Shown here: positions 3,074 through 32,628 of the stretch, one piece after another | Layout: each line of letters opens with the position of its first letter | Numbering within the stretch: position 1 is the stretch's first letter | Source of the DNA: Limisphaerales bacterium | Lineage (GTDB): Bacteria; Verrucomicrobiota; Verrucomicrobiia; Limisphaerales; UBA11358 | DNA: 64,000 nt | Assembly: GCA_025360325.1 (NCBI GenBank) | Contig: JANYCI010000013.1 | Location: 13,544-77,543 of the forward strand | Direction of reading: 5' to 3' | The notes under the pieces: generated by a model | What the model saw: only the letters and a program-made list of their open reading frames with translations | Database searches by the model: none | What the model was told of the DNA's origin: nothing | Position numbers and translations under genes: made by a program

Positions 3074-3205
3074 AAATGGGAGATACGATATTGACGTGCG
3101 ACGGTTGAATTTCAAAGGATGAATTGCATGGAATTGGGTATCAGGATCAGGCGGCTAACCGATGAATCATTAGTTAATTTTAGGATTGTATCTTTAACCG
3201 ACTTT

Positions 3206-3285
3206 GTCCGCAGATTCCGCAGATTTTCGCAGATGAGGCAAAACTTAATCGGCGTGAATCTACGGAATCAGCGGATGAAATGCGG
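3206..3285. repeat. imperfect palindromic intergenic element, CGCAGAT family
   Basis: ccgcagattccgcagattttcgcagat ... atcggcgtgaatctacggaatcagcgg are approximate reverse complements. It has the same core (atctgcg / cgcagat / aatctg) as the element at 7883..8006. It lies in the divergent region between the SGNH gene and tlyA. Confidence 0.7.
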
Positions 3286-3368
3286 TTCCGTTTGCAAGGT
3301 GTTTAATCCCTAGTAATTTCAAAAGCCAGATTGTCCCCTCCCAGAATTTGTCCTACACTGGCCGGACA

Positions 3369-4274
3369 ATGCCTGCGGCTCGACTCGATCAAACCCTCGT
3401 GGAACGCGGCCTGTGCGCCAGCCGCGAACAGGCCAAGCGGCTCATCCTCGCCGGCAAAGTCCGCGTCAACGGCCATCCCGCGCGCAAGGCCAGCGACTCC
3501 ACGAAACCCGGCGACGACCTCGCGGTGGACGTGCCCGAAAAATTTGTCAGTCGCGGTGGACACAAGCTCGAACACGCGCTGGAACATTTTCAACTCGCGG
3601 TAAAAAATCTCATCGCCATTGATCTCGGTGCCTCCACGGGCGGTTTCACGGATTGCTTGTTGCAACGCGGCGCGGAAAAAGTTTTTGCGGTGGATGTCGG
3701 CCAAGGCCAACTGGCGTGGAAATTGCGAAGCGACTCACGCGTGGTGGTAATGGAAAAAACTAACGCACGTTTTTTGAAGCCGGAGCATTTCGTGCCTTCT
3801 CCCTCGCTCCTCCTAGGGGAGAGGGCCGGGGTGAGGGGTCGGAGTGTGGTAGGACAATCAAATGACAACAGAACATCAAACCCGCCCGTTCACCCCTCAC
3901 CCTCAATCCCTCTCCCCTCCGAGGGGCGAGGGAAGTCCGTTGTGGACACAACGGTTGAACCGCCCGCAGATTTAATCGTCGTGGACTGCTCGTTCATCTC
4001 GCTGAAAAAAGTTTTACCACCAGCCGTGCCGCTGCTGAAGCTCGGCGGGAAAATTGTCGCGCTCATCAAACCGCAATTCGAGGCGGGCAAAGCGGAGGCG
4101 GACAAAGGACGCGGCGTCATCACCGATCCGACGGTCCACGCGCGCGTGATCGCGGAACTGGAAGAATTTGTCGCGGCGCAGGCTGGCCTTTGCTGGCGCG
4201 GTGTGGTTGAATCTCCGCTGCTCGGCCCTGCCGGGAACAAAGAATTTTTGACGCTGATTGAAAAAGTCCGCTGA
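3369..4274 (+). CDS. tlyA: TlyA-family rRNA 2'-O-methyltransferase (hemolysin A-like), carrying a 50-codon in-frame insertion
   Basis: S4-like N-terminus RLDQTLVERGLCASREQAKRLILAGKVRVNG. FtsJ-type SAM fold IAIDLGASTGGFTDCLLQRGAEKVFAVDVG and DLIVVDCSFISL. ATG at 3369 within ORF 3348..4274. Confidence 0.9.
   Translation: MPAARLDQTLVERGLCASREQAKRLILAGKVRVNGHPARKASDSTKPGDDLAVDVPEKFVSRGGHKLEHALEHFQLAVKNLIAIDLGASTGGFTDCLLQRGAEKVFAVDVGQGQLAWKLRSDSRVVVMEKTNARFLKPEHFVPSPSLLLGERAGVRGRSVVGQSNDNRTSNPPVHPSPSIPLPSEGRGKSVVDTTVEPPADLIVVDCSFISLKKVLPPAVPLLKLGGKIVALIKPQFEAGKAEADKGRGVITDPTVHARVIAELEEFVAAQAGLCWRGVVESPLLGPAGNKEFLTLIEKVR
3796..3945. mobile_element. 150-bp MITE/REP-like palindromic element inside the tlyA coding frame
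   Basis: Arm 3796..3838 (cttctccctcgctcctcctaggggagagggccggggtgagggg) is the near reverse complement of arm 3893..3945 (cccctcaccctcaatccctctcccctccgaggggcgagggaag). Length 150 = 50 codons with no stop in the gene frame. Confidence 0.75.
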
Positions 4275-5142
4275 ACCATTTCGTCGCATCGGCCTCGTGG
4301 GCAACCCGGAGAAAGCCGCTTGCGCGGAAATCGTCCGCCTCGCGGCGCGGCTCATCGCGCGCACCGGGCGGAAAATTTTTTGCGATCCGGCCACGGCGAA
4401 AATTGCCAATCTCAAATGCCCCGTGTTTCCTGACGCACCCGCGCTCGCGAGCAAAACGGATTTGATCATCGTCTTTGGCGGCGACGGCACGATGCTCCAC
4501 GCCGCGCGCGACATCGCCGGATTTCGCACCCCCATCCTCGGCGTGAACATCGGCGCGCTCGGTTTTCTCACGGCCGTTTCTTCGGACAAACTGGCCGACG
4601 CGCTGAAACTGATTTGGCGCGGCGAATTCAAATTTGAATCCCGCGCGCTCATCGAGGCGACCGGTAAGTGCCATGGAAAAAATGTCATCGCCCCGGCACT
4701 CAACGACATCGTCATCAGTCGCGGTGCGGTCTCGCGGCTGATCTCGCTCGACGTGAGCGTGAACGGCGAACCCATCACGCGCTACCGTTGCGACGGCCTC
4801 ATCGTGAGTTCGCCGACCGGCTCGACGGCCTATTCGCTCGCCGCTGGCGGCGCGATTGTTTTGCCGACGGCGGATGTTTTCACCCTCACGCCGATCTGTC
4901 CGCACGCGCTTTCCAACCGCTCCATCATTTTGCCGCTGTCCGCGACGTTGCAAGTGAAAGCCGTGGCCGCTGCGCCCGCCACGATTTTGAGCGCGGACGG
5001 CGAATTCGCGGGCGAACTCGATGCCGGCGATGAAATCACTATCCGCCGCAGCCGCCGCTCCGTGCGGATTTTGCAACTGGCCAACAGCTCCTTCCTCGAA
5101 GCGCTGCGCCGGAAATTGCACTGGCGCGGAACGTATCTCTGA
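4258..5142 (+). CDS. nadK: NAD+ kinase
   Basis: DLIIVFGGDGTML, GVNIGALGFL, NDIVISRG, CDGLIVSSPTGSTAYSLAAGG. The TTG start overlaps the tlyA end by 17 nt. Confidence 0.92.
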   Translation: MKKSAEPFRRIGLVGNPEKAACAEIVRLAARLIARTGRKIFCDPATAKIANLKCPVFPDAPALASKTDLIIVFGGDGTMLHAARDIAGFRTPILGVNIGALGFLTAVSSDKLADALKLIWRGEFKFESRALIEATGKCHGKNVIAPALNDIVISRGAVSRLISLDVSVNGEPITRYRCDGLIVSSPTGSTAYSLAAGGAIVLPTADVFTLTPICPHALSNRSIILPLSATLQVKAVAAAPATILSADGEFAGELDAGDEITIRRSRRSVRILQLANSSFLEALRRKLHWRGTYL

Positions 5143-5195
5143 AAGTGTGAAGGCAGAATTATGAATGATGAATTAAAACGCCGATGGACGCCGCG

Positions 5196-5235
5196 AATTT
5201 CATTTTCAACCTTCAACCTTCAACCTTCAACCTTC
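5196..5235. repeat. heptanucleotide tandem repeat (aatttca, then tcaacct x4)
   Basis: gaatttcattttcaaccttcaaccttcaaccttcaaccttct lies immediately upstream of the LacI-family start at 5241. Confidence 0.9.
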
Positions 5236-5240
5236 TAAAA

Positions 5241-6253: not shown

Positions 6254-6341
6254 GGAAGTTTGTTGGGGCAAGCGTCCTCGCGAGCCGCTTGGTCTGACGA
6301 CGCCCCGGCTCGCGAAGACGCTCGCCCCACCAGCAAACTTC
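6254..6341. repeat. 88-bp imperfect palindrome between convergent genes (terminator-like REP element)
   Basis: ggaagtttgttggggcaagcgtcctcgcgagccg (6254..6287) versus cggctcgcgaagacgctcgccccaccagcaaacttc (6306..6341), which are near reverse complements. Confidence 0.75.
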
Positions 6342-6759
6342 ACTTTTTCCCTTCACCAACCCGGCAGCTTCCGTTTTCACATTTTGATCCGCCAAACCAG
6401 CCACCGATTTTCACCCGGTTCCGCGCGAACCATTCGTAGAATTTATCCGTGAGCCAACGCAAGCCCGGCCAGCTCGTTGGCGCAACCAGCCAGCCGAGAC
6501 CAACCAACCGATACGCCGCGCGAAACGTCGCCACGCGCGTGACGACTCGGCCATCGGGGAAAATGCCGTGCATCACGCCTTCCACTTCCGTTTGCGTGAG
6601 GCCATAAATCGCCGCATCAAAACCGGGCGCGGAAATATCTTCGGTCGCCAATTTGCCTGCACGGTCACGACGCTTCAACCACGCGACTTCGCGGCAGCAA
6701 AATGGACATTGCCCATCAAACAATAATTTTAATTGCCAGTTGGTTTTAGTTTCCTTCAT
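6340..6759 (-). CDS. thiol-disulfide oxidoreductase DCC family (DUF393)
   Basis: LLFDGQCPFCCREVAWLKRRDRAGKL is the typical DCC/DUF393 N-terminal motif. Confidence 0.8.
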   Translation of the reverse strand: MKETKTNWQLKLLFDGQCPFCCREVAWLKRRDRAGKLATEDISAPGFDAAIYGLTQTEVEGVMHGIFPDGRVVTRVATFRAAYRLVGLGWLVAPTSWPGLRWLTDKFYEWFARNRVKIGGWFGGSKCENGSCRVGEGKK

Positions 6760-7882: not shown

Positions 7883-8006
7883 CACAGATAGACACAGATA
7901 AGAAAAACATTTTATCCGCAGATGACACAGATTTTCGCAGATTAAGTTTTATCTGCGTGAATCTGTGTCATCTGCGAACACTTTTCTTATCTGTGTTTCA
8001 TCTGTG
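7883..8006. repeat. 124-bp imperfect palindrome, CGCAGAT family, between convergent genes
   Basis: cacagatagacacagataagaaaa...atccgcagatgacacagattttcgcagat | atctgcgtgaatctgtgtcatctgcg...ttttcttatctgtgtttcatctgtg. The two halves are reverse complements around ~7945. Confidence 0.85.
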
Positions 8007-22932: not shown

Positions 22933-22952
22933 TCTCCGCAAACGAAAATTTC

Positions 22953-22992
22953 AAAACGGCGGCGGGCAAATTGTCCGCCGCCGTTTTTGTAT
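22953..22992. terminator. bidirectional rho-independent terminator
   Basis: aaaacggcggcgg-gcaaattgt-ccgccgccgtttttgtattttt between convergent stops at 22932 (+) and 23000 (-). A perfect 10-bp GC stem is flanked by an A-run and a T-run. Confidence 0.85.
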
Positions 22993-22999
22993 TTTTCCG

Positions 23000-32553: not shown

Positions 32554-32628
32554 TGGTGCGCGCTGCAGGTTTCGAACCTGCGACCCCTACCGTGTGAAGG
32601 TAATGCTCTACCACTGAGCTAAGCACGC
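32554..32628 (-). tRNA. tRNA-Val (anticodon CAC), CCA encoded
   Basis: Reverse complement GCGTGCTTAGCTCAGTGGTAGAGCATTACCTTCACACGGTAGGGGTCGCAGGTTCGAAACCTGCAGCGCGCACCA. I folded the cloverleaf by hand: 7-bp acceptor, D GCTC/GAGC, anticodon stem TTACC/GGTAG with loop TTCACAC, T-arm GCAGG-TTCGAAA-CCTGC. Confidence 0.95.

Follow-up and report, generated by a model that had tools for sequence, protein, structure and literature searches.

A BoxC/TMECO-type palindromic unit read in frame through a predicted loop of the rRNA methyltransferase TlyA

How does a 140-nucleotide palindrome come to lie in frame inside a housekeeping gene, what kind of element is it, and what becomes of the enzyme that has to be translated through it? 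These questions are raised by tlyA (positions 3369–4274, plus strand), the gene for a 16S/23S rRNA cytidine-2'-O-methyltransferase of 301 residues, in a 64,000-nucleotide stretch of contig JANYCI010000013.1 (assembly GCA_025360325.1) that was analysed as a whole and is called the window below. Our answer, which we consider likely, is that selfish or structural palindromic DNA of the BoxC/TMECO type entered a permissive loop of TlyA as one copied block, and that the enzyme tolerates the 55 disordered residues which its translation adds there. An earlier note on this DNA, made from the letters and the open reading frames (ORFs) alone, had drawn attention to the palindrome, and we indicate where its description has held and where it has had to be changed.

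The identity of the host gene rests on the ORF list, Pfam, matches in the Protein Data Bank (PDB) and an AlphaFold2 (AF2) model. The protein carries S4 (PF01479) and FtsJ (PF01728) domains; its best solved relatives are TlyA proteins, among them that of Mycobacterium tuberculosis (7s0s, E = 5e-53); and the AF2 model superposes on TlyA structures, with a template-modelling (TM) score of 0.82 to crystal structures of the C-terminal domain and with 3hp7 among the PDB matches. Residues K66, D206, K234 and E292 are invariant in a 57-sequence alignment and correspond to the K-D-K-E tetrad in the alignment with M. tuberculosis TlyA, so that S4 domain, FtsJ-fold methyltransferase and tetrad together place the protein among the TlyA enzymes. 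Structure 7s0s aligns to it as two blocks, residues 4–140 and 200–295, and skips the insert, leaving about 59 residues between ...NARFLKPEHF and DLIVVDCSF... that have no counterpart in the solved TlyAs. These two segments had been expected to lie close together in TlyA, and distant orthologues as well as the solved structures do without the intervening segment.

Measured against orthologues with an empty site, by means of an alignment of 120 homologues and the DNA of filled and empty sites, the whole insertion occupies 3792–3956 on the plus strand (a placement that is ambiguous by a few bases) and amounts to 55 codons, residues 142–196, encoding VPSPSLLLGERAGVRG...GRGKSVVDTTV. Nested within it is a discrete palindromic unit of 140 nt at 3796–3935 (plus strand), running from CTTCTCCCTC to GAGGGAAG and delimited by boundaries that it shares with the tlyA copies of two relatives (loci L004 and L208) and with a copy in a helicase gene (L212, 6434–6573). 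The left arm, at 3801–3838 on the plus strand, is made up of a C-stem (3801–3810), a loop (3811–3815), a G-stem (3816–3825), a CC loop and a third G-stem (3828–3838); a 53-nt spacer (3839–3891, plus strand), homologous in the L004 tlyA and L212 helicase copies and unrelated in L208 and in a further relative, L006, forms the central loop of the long hairpin; and the right arm, at 3893–3932 on the minus strand, reads CCCTCGCCCC TCGGA GGGGAGAGGG ATTGA GGGTGAGGGG. A hairpin of 8 perfect base pairs, CCGTTGTG-GA-CACAACGG (3937–3954, plus strand), follows the unit directly on its 3' side and lies in a tail of the insertion that is specific to the window: it is present in the minimum-free-energy structures and absent from L004, L208 and L212.

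Taken as a whole, the palindrome has arms spanning 3800–3839 and 3892–3933, each about 40 nt long and about 85–88% complementary to the other, within which two inverted-repeat pairs can be told apart, 3800–3825 with 3908–3933 (26 nt, 88% complementary) and 3829–3839 with 3892–3902 (11 nt, 100%); the gapped alignment of the two halves has 35 matches in 42 columns and 2 gaps. Each arm consists of a small hairpin and then a second G-run, CCCTCGC(T/C)CC - loop - GGGGAGAGGG - short loop - GGG(G)TGAGGGG, a pattern that occurs at only these two places in the 64 kb and nowhere in 100 dinucleotide-preserving shuffles. For 3786–3960 the folding energy is −96.8 kcal/mol (z = −7.6) when the stretch is treated as RNA and −48 kcal/mol (z = −6.5) when it is treated as DNA, values that none of 200 shuffles equalled. 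The tlyA frame passes through the insertion without a stop, its codons starting at 3795, and is one of the two open frames among the six of the 140-nt unit; the peptide so encoded is rich in Pro, Ser, Gly and Arg and has predicted tryptic products such as SVVGQSNDNR and TSNPPVHPSPSIPLPSEGR. The earlier note was right that a stop-free palindrome lies in frame in tlyA; the palindrome is far beyond chance, and the shuffles, together with arms that are near-identical to E. coli BoxC, dispose of its own suggestion that the palindromy might be low-complexity chance. What has had to be redrawn is the outline: the inverted pair is real, but not at 3796–3838 and 3893–3945 and not near-perfect, and the supposed 150 bp of exactly 50 codons has given way to a 140-nt unit within an insertion of 55 codons, in a codon register different from the one assumed. 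At its gathering thresholds Rfam finds only a tRNA in the window, and at E values up to 10 it gives for the element only sub-threshold matches to miRNA precursors, which are generic long hairpins; the element is therefore not a known RNA family.

The arms themselves identify the element. The repeat concerned was first named BoxC, then the PIT element and then TMECO (Holder et al. 2015, PMC4666352), and its published pattern is CCCTCNCCC N3-6 GGGNGAGGG N3 GGGNGAGGG, with a first loop of 3–6 nt and a second of exactly 3 nt (PMC4666352). A single strand of the E. coli repeat forms a purine-motif intrastrand triplex in vitro, as seen by circular dichroism and nuclear magnetic resonance, whereas the triplex was not detected in double-stranded DNA or in vivo (PMC4666352). 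The 23 copies of E. coli K-12 are all intergenic, and five inverted pairs are found there, each joining a type A unit (loop TTA) to a type B unit (loop CCG) (PMC4666352). Against this background, the left arm of the window agrees with K-12 TMECO no. 18, of type B, at 35 of 36 positions and has a loop that is longer by 2 nt; the right arm, read on the minus strand, agrees with the common type-A 'mm' copies of K-12 at 35 of 36 positions and shows two differences in the loops, of 2 nt each. Both arms hold the three TMECO blocks, and each of the ten triads formed by the third strand with the purine stem is of a permitted kind; in its C-stem the left arm has one mismatch more. The pair also obeys the A-with-B rule, the second loop being CC(G), as in type B, on the left and ATTGA, type-A-like (TTA in E. 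coli), on the right; the same pairing is found in L208, L006 and L212. With the E. coli BoxC pair between hrpB and mrcB, the window pair has in common an internal G.A mismatch as well as the flanking bases TTCTCCCTC... and ...GTTCACCC. Judged by these matches, the element is a non-autonomous BoxC/PIT/TMECO repeat, a type-B unit on the plus strand and an inverted type-A unit with the 53-nt spacer between them.

Its distribution extends well past the Proteobacteria. A motif scan with GGGGAGAGGG N1-6 GGGTGAGGGG, using one genome per species, found the arm motif in at least 120 DNA stretches across many phyla, many of them as inverted pairs; among the matches listed are Alpha-, Beta- and Gammaproteobacteria, Verrucomicrobia, Planctomycetes, Acidobacteriota, Nitrospirota, Chloroflexota, Myxococcota and others. 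TMECO units also lie in frame in Mfd, in the isoleucyl-tRNA synthetase of Devosia, in the NAD-dependent DNA ligase LigA of Planctomycetota, in an ABC-transporter ATPase of Verrucomicrobia, in VgrG and in an MmeI-like methyltransferase, six host genes other than tlyA in which the units stand within or between Pfam domains (loci L090, L106, L139, L093, L206 and L107, from Proteobacteria, Planctomycetota and Verrucomicrobia). Apparently in-frame repeats are seen as well in a Methyltransf_28 (PF02636) gene of L006 (192–1340, minus strand), at 682–721, 866–892 and 1093–1119; they comprise a lone TMECO unit together with two runs of heptamers, one of them GCGGATT x4 and the other of a CTCCGCC type.

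That the 140 nt form a unit becomes plain from a second, unrelated gene. An exhaustive phmmer search with the 59-residue insert peptide against 1.84 billion representative proteins returned nine matches, of which P0121 and P0123 are UvrD/AddA-like helicases, the source of the latter being named by NCBI as a Limisphaerales metagenome-assembled genome (MAG); a search with the same peptide in a word-indexed protein database gave no match, probably because of low complexity or of the word index. In the helicase the copy, spacer included, stands in frame after motif II (DEYQD) and before motif III (GDVKQSIY); the match to the UvrD-helicase Pfam domain is in two pieces, one on each side of it. Positions 6434–6573 of L212 align with 3796–3935 of the window over all 140 nt, and the two loci otherwise share only a tRNA (in the window a tRNA gene at 32557–32628, minus strand, with a similar one on L212). 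In the window, L004 and L212 the similarity starts at CTTCTCCCTC and stops at GAGGGAAG(T), and the unit is exactly 140 nt long in the window, L208 and L212, though the spacer sequence of L208 is unrelated. Because the boundaries coincide in unrelated genes, the 140-nt unit would have been copied as a block, and its distribution indicates something that behaves as a mobile or copied unit.

The helicase (L212, 6001–7752; P0121, P0123 and P0133–P0225, from Limisphaerales/Verrucomicrobia MAGs) has a hot spot of its own, for among 94 homologues read at this point 71 have the basal spacing of motifs II and III, 21 are longer by 18–49 residues and 2 by 4, all at one point; the inserts belong to several palindromic families, namely the TMECO pair, 'GVPPSGG...PPEGGTPN', 'WGETPGEP...RGRSPH' and 'TGVSPV...RQDACATT'. 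On L212 (GCA_037200185.1, JBBCIJ010000004.1) many genes are split, the pantoate ligase, SRP54 and UvrD-like genes among them, and ORF boundaries in this frameshift-rich-looking assembly call for caution. In P0122, P0124 and P0126, ORFs run through two TMECO-pair elements about 100 residues apart with a conserved stretch between them, which suggests a larger repeated module or a tandem arrangement, and P0125 is likely an intergenic copy.

At tlyA, the state without an insert is the older one. Among the 120 closest TlyA homologues, which are 85–96% identical outside the insert, 66 are empty at the site and read ...NARFLKPE(N/H/S)F-P(A/S/T)PADL..., and 54 carry an insertion of at least 5 residues at the same codon (2 have inserts elsewhere in the protein); the distant metagenome homologues read empty at 61 of 71 sites, and the solved TlyA structures are empty too. 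Since more than half of the close set, most distant homologues and the PDB structures have nothing at the site, the empty state is ancestral. The alignment of orthologues that the earlier note had called for thus bears out its view of a repeat element that landed in tlyA, and the homologous segment whose presence in distant orthologues it would have taken as a refutation is missing from most of them. P0043 and P0076 have a rare second insertion site after residue ~214 of the 244-residue form, with inserts RRSPIRR...SETGAPG and GGAGSPLPAV...HGVTRP.

The occupied sites are diverse. Over the whole set of TlyA sequences examined, at least six unrelated palindromic families occupy the codon: the TMECO pair with at least six different spacers, an AACATTC-heptamer palindrome (KHSTFNIQH...ECSMLNVS), a GCGGAGT-heptamer palindrome (L007), GGGACGAGT...ACTCGTCCC (L009, L014), 'DVEPGILPG...GGKMPPSTS' (L017) and 'TPQSRRSA...ECGGFSTAF' (L084); there are also half-elements with only the left or only the right TMECO unit. 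Six of seven non-window inserts that were folded are strongly palindromic (z from −5.9 to −8.6), L084 reaching only −2.4. In L005 a left TMECO unit precedes an entire heptamer palindrome, which looks like an intermediate of nesting or replacement. Insert turnover is fast relative to the protein: P0003, with the TMECO pair, is 96.3% identical to the empty P0040 and 95.1% identical to P0021, which has the heptamer palindrome, and P0005, P0007, P0098 and P0031 make up a similar set. Apart from this site TMECO units are scarce, for 579 kb of related loci contain 14 and tlyA accounts for 9 of these, which makes random independent hits on one codon implausible; recurrence there calls for strong filtering by selection, for targeting, or for a founder palindrome as a seed. 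When the insert is masked, a neighbour-joining tree of the 120 TlyAs has too little resolution to separate a single from multiple origins. Insert-bearing alleles are enriched in His140 and in the 'PPADL' junction, with only partial clade structure, and this bias hints at some common ancestry or at a footprint.

What the insertion has done to the enzyme can be approached through selection and through the predicted fold. In the 726 nt that flank the insert, the ratio of nonsynonymous to synonymous substitution rates (dN/dS, by the Nei-Gojobori method) lies between 0.05 and 0.20 in all 36 pairs, including pairs in which both members carry an insert; for the window and L004, which have the same element with a homologous spacer, it is 0.117 at a dS of 0.56. 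The TlyA flanks are under purifying selection. The AF2 model has a mean predicted local distance difference test (pLDDT) score of 81, with the S4 and FtsJ parts confident, and in line with the earlier note's proposal of an external loop it gives residues 147–192 a pLDDT below 50 and no secondary structure, between a helix (138–141) and a strand (200–206) that ends in the catalytic D206. The insert is thus predicted to form a disordered loop ahead of the strand that bears Asp206, and because it precedes the N-terminal end of a strand, the topology of the Rossmann fold would place this loop on the side opposite the S-adenosylmethionine (SAM) site, away from the SAM, catalytic and ribosome-binding surfaces. 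With its constrained flanks, invariant tetrad and TlyA-like fold, the full-length, insert-bearing TlyA is probably made and active.

The earlier note had left it undecided whether the element was tolerated as a surface loop or had inactivated the enzyme, and these data favour the former. A pseudogene that is still ORF-like might be imagined, as the insert ends only 10 residues before Asp206 (residue 196 to 206) and the mRNA hairpin is very strong; tlyA is, moreover, dispensable in some bacteria, and in M. tuberculosis its loss is viable and leads to capreomycin resistance. Inactivation nevertheless seems scarcely credible, given a dN/dS of about 0.1 between lineages that both bear the element, invariant SAM motifs alongside the invariant tetrad, and an ORF that is intact in many independent assemblies. 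Virtually no weight attaches to the idea that the palindrome arose by chance from low complexity or from faulty assembly: the sequence is simple and rich in G and C, and it comes from a metagenome-assembled genome, yet no shuffle attained the observed values, the arms match E. coli BoxC almost exactly, and independent ENA, JGI and NCBI assemblies have the same element at the same site. A group I or II intron, an intein or programmed bypass was considered and rejected on account of the small size of the segment, the peptide read in frame, the many contexts and the lack of matching motifs, as was an intervening sequence excised by RNase III, which would cut the mRNA and is hard to reconcile with a dN/dS of about 0.1.

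More demanding is the conservation of the arms, which is a matter of DNA and not of codons. Between the window and L208 the right arm is identical at 45 of 45 nt and the left at 41 of 44, against 59% identity at the third codon positions of the flanks, and the spacers cannot be aligned; under coding constraint alone, the ~15 third positions of the right arm would be expected to show about six differences. Between the window and L004 the right arm matches at 43 of 45 nt and the drifting spacer at 34 of 51, close to the 71% identity of the third positions in the flanks. The consensus hairpin of five copies has 42 pairs, 6 of which show compensatory changes on both sides; in L006 the loop of the small hairpin is changed in both arms in coordination (GGCAA/TTGCC), and in L004 the 'mismatch' position is switched in both arms. 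Such conservation fits maintenance of the hairpin, copying from arm to arm, gene conversion from other copies, or recent re-insertion.

It also invites two functional explanations. One is that the hairpin or triplex DNA is kept for a role at the nucleic-acid level, as a throttle or pause of translation, as an RNase III site, or as an unstable structure that switches tlyA alleles; arms conserved well beyond what coding demands, compensatory changes that preserve the long hairpin, its folding energy, a site that is hypervariable among TlyAs 95–96% identical, and the link that Holder et al. 2015 draw between TMECO loci and local indel instability all speak for it. We regard it as unlikely, since more than half of the close relatives have no insert and others have unrelated palindromes in its place, since recent re-insertion or gene conversion accounts for the arms equally well, and since, in what is reported of earlier work (via PMC4666352), the E. 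coli elements had no promoter or terminator activity; the same unit in an unrelated helicase and the arm motif in other genes further speak against a role specific to tlyA. The other explanation, that TlyA has put the peptide to use as a functional segment, for instance a disordered loop that contacts the ribosome or has a regulatory role, could point to the high conservation of the peptide arms SPSPLGGERAGVRG and HPSPSIPLPSEGRGK among orthologues and to the retention of the insert across lineages with a flank dS of 0.5–1.0. It appears very improbable, as third codon positions are as invariant as the others, the same peptide recurs in a helicase, the site is empty or interchangeable with unrelated peptides, and AF2 predicts no structure for the insert.

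The reading that we prefer, of tolerated palindromic DNA, can be set out as a sequence of steps. The 140-nt unit would have been copied as a block into the tlyA frame directly after the codon of Phe141, and it would have persisted for three reasons: the frame used is one of the two that are stop-free and the insertion amounts to 55 codons; the encoded peptide stays disordered, just ahead of the Asp206 strand; and TlyA still works, so that selection would not have removed the insert. The insert itself probably does nothing for TlyA. The loop would serve as a landing pad, vacant in some relatives and in others filled by this element, by half-elements or by palindromic repeats unrelated to it. 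As for the means of spread, the unit would move by way of a hairpin or single-stranded form, through REPIN-like transposition or template switching, and its recurrence at the tlyA site presumably reflects mainly a selection filter. A further idea, that the tlyA and helicase loops are genuine integration targets and more than permissive sites, and that unrelated palindromic families, the 140-nt BoxC pair with its arms conserved across phyla among them, enter one codon by a common mechanism directed by structure, for instance template switching or the capture of hairpins or single strands, is possible but on balance doubtful; if true, it would make the route of BoxC/PIT mobilisation tractable through the filled, empty and nested alleles of 95–96% identical TlyAs. 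Microhomology between the empty site (e.g. TTT CCT TCG CCC GCT GAT) and the C-rich stem CCCTCGCCCC was tried as an explanation and set aside, being suggestive in L209 and L004 and not general.

Several observations weigh against this reading. The strict published TMECO regular expression has no match in the window, the loops being 1–2 nt too long and the left arm having its extra mismatch: if stems of 9 nt are taken, the first loop measures 7 nt on either side and the right arm's second loop exceeds 3 nt, and if stems of 10 nt are taken, the loops are 5 and 2 nt on the left and 5 and 5 nt on the right, inside the general ITxF limits of 1–6 nt. A scan that covered the window found no further copy of the unit in its 64 kb; on the earlier note's check, whether the arms recur in the genome, the evidence is indirect and consists of the unit in another gene of a related MAG and of the arm motif in many phyla. 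Mobility is inferred from distribution only; no target-site duplication is seen at the three junction pairs GTGC|TCCG (window), CTGC|TCCG (L004) and AATT|TTGG (L212); and, in a difference from REPINs, the paired form of repetitive extragenic palindromes (REPs), no REP-associated tyrosine transposase (RAYT, an IS200/IS605-like TnpA) was identified, no search aimed at RAYTs or transposases having been made. So extreme a conservation might, alternatively, point to a function of the arms, and an mRNA hairpin of −97 kcal/mol could impair translation or attract RNase III. Finally, only full-length called proteins were sampled, among which frameshifted or inactivating insertions are invisible, so that the impression of inserts that are always in frame is partly an effect of ascertainment.

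Other repeats occur in the window. CGCAGAT-type heptamer palindromes, of a family different from the tlyA insert, are intergenic at 3205–3290, just upstream of tlyA, and at 7917–7976, between convergent gene ends. A tandem (TTCAACC)x5 run at 5196–5236 lies between the stop of the NAD kinase gene (5142) and the likely true start of a LacI-family gene (~5242), whose listed start at 5184 reads through it; the heptamer is of the same kind as the arms of the 'type 2' palindrome in tlyA of relatives. Long hairpins with 27-nt and 25-nt arms are found at 6261–6332, directly 3' of the LacI-family stop, and at 22945–22995, AT-flanked and terminator-like.

In-frame palindromic repeats are already known, both as Rickettsia palindromic elements (RPEs) and as intragenic REPs, and so is BoxC/TMECO itself, which has been known in E. 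coli since the 1990s as a strictly intergenic repeat with no known function or means of spread. What we have found undescribed in the literature searched is the BoxC/TMECO pair as a discrete 140-nt composite in coding sequence outside the Proteobacteria, the near-identity of TMECO arms and of their pairing rule across phyla, and one codon position filled by many unrelated palindromic families among close relatives. The picture changes in that the motif occurs in a very distant, probably verrucomicrobial lineage, as a 140-nt composite in at least two unrelated housekeeping genes, and can be read as protein. At one codon the tlyA locus offers alleles that are empty, filled, half-deleted or nested, a natural series with which to ask how such palindromes are inserted and later decay, and how far an enzyme core can bear added disordered sequence. 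It also holds a lesson for annotation, in that peptides such as PSPLGGERAGVRG or HPSPSIPLPSEGRGK in conserved proteins are the read-through of repeats and not domains.

It remains to compare the element with the systems that it most resembles. The earlier note had labelled it MITE/REP-like, and of this label the palindromic repeat survives, more exactly as a BoxC/PIT/TMECO inverted pair. Miniature inverted-repeat transposable elements, or MITEs, are small, non-coding and dispersed, have terminal inverted repeats and can make in-frame fusions (PMC10969869). The 140-nt unit is likewise small and dispersed, with inverted ends, but it has neither a target-site duplication at the junctions tested nor a known parent insertion sequence with matching ends, and is not a MITE in the strict sense. 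Nor is it a GTAG-tagged REP. Intragenic GTAG/CGTC REPs are most numerous in the verrucomicrobium Opitutus terrae and turn up frequently in genes for DNA repair, UvrD/REP helicases among them (Di Nocera et al. 2013, PMC3733652); the present unit has no GTAG/CGTC tag, its ends being CTTCTCCC and GGGAAG and its sole GTAG lying in the spacer. With REPINs, as far as they are described from Bertels and Rainey 2011 via PMC3733652, it has in common two inverted units that form a long hairpin, conserved arms, a variable loop and compensatory changes, whereas its arm is a triplex motif and not a simple stem-loop.

To the BoxC/TMECO repeats of E. coli the resemblance is one of parts and of behaviour. The three-block unit, CCCTCNCCC(C), GGG(G)AGAGGG and GGGTGAGGG(G), is the same, as are the 35/36 identity, the internal mismatch, the pairing of B with inverted A and the hrpB-mrcB flanks. 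The tlyA locus, too, has the small-indel instability that the paper describes, TMECO loci showing an excess of small indels between strains (PMC4666352); an example of such decay is the left TMECO arm of L004, broken at 4295–4312 by a piece of ~12–18 nt, GGGGAG-cagcgacagcggctatgg-CGGGTGAGGGG. Earlier work, in the part reported there, knew of no mobilising enzyme (PMC4666352). The differences are that the window unit is intragenic and in frame while the K-12 copies are all intergenic, that its host lies outside the Proteobacteria and, to go by the source names of the helicase homologues, is probably a member of the Verrucomicrobiota, that its spacer of 53 nt, against about 16–27 nt, makes a fixed 140-nt composite, and that its loops are 1–2 nt longer and the published pattern is not strictly matched.

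In its relation to the host protein, the element is closest to the RPEs (Ogata et al. 2000, 2002), which, in the portions of the literature drawn on here (PMC10969869, PMC3733652), are palindromic repeats of ~100–150 bp found in frame in unrelated housekeeping genes, their peptides forming extra segments compatible with the fold and their hosts being thought still functional. Here as there, a stop-free palindromic insertion stands in frame in a conserved gene with Pfam and PDB matches on both sides, the host is constrained (dN/dS 0.05–0.20) with the insert in a predicted loop compatible with the fold, and the repeat family recurs in several unrelated genes, namely the helicase and the six further gene families with TMECO units. 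The two have no sequence relationship and live in different host lineages, and in the present case many repeat families share one codon of tlyA among close relatives and the arms belong to a family that spans phyla.

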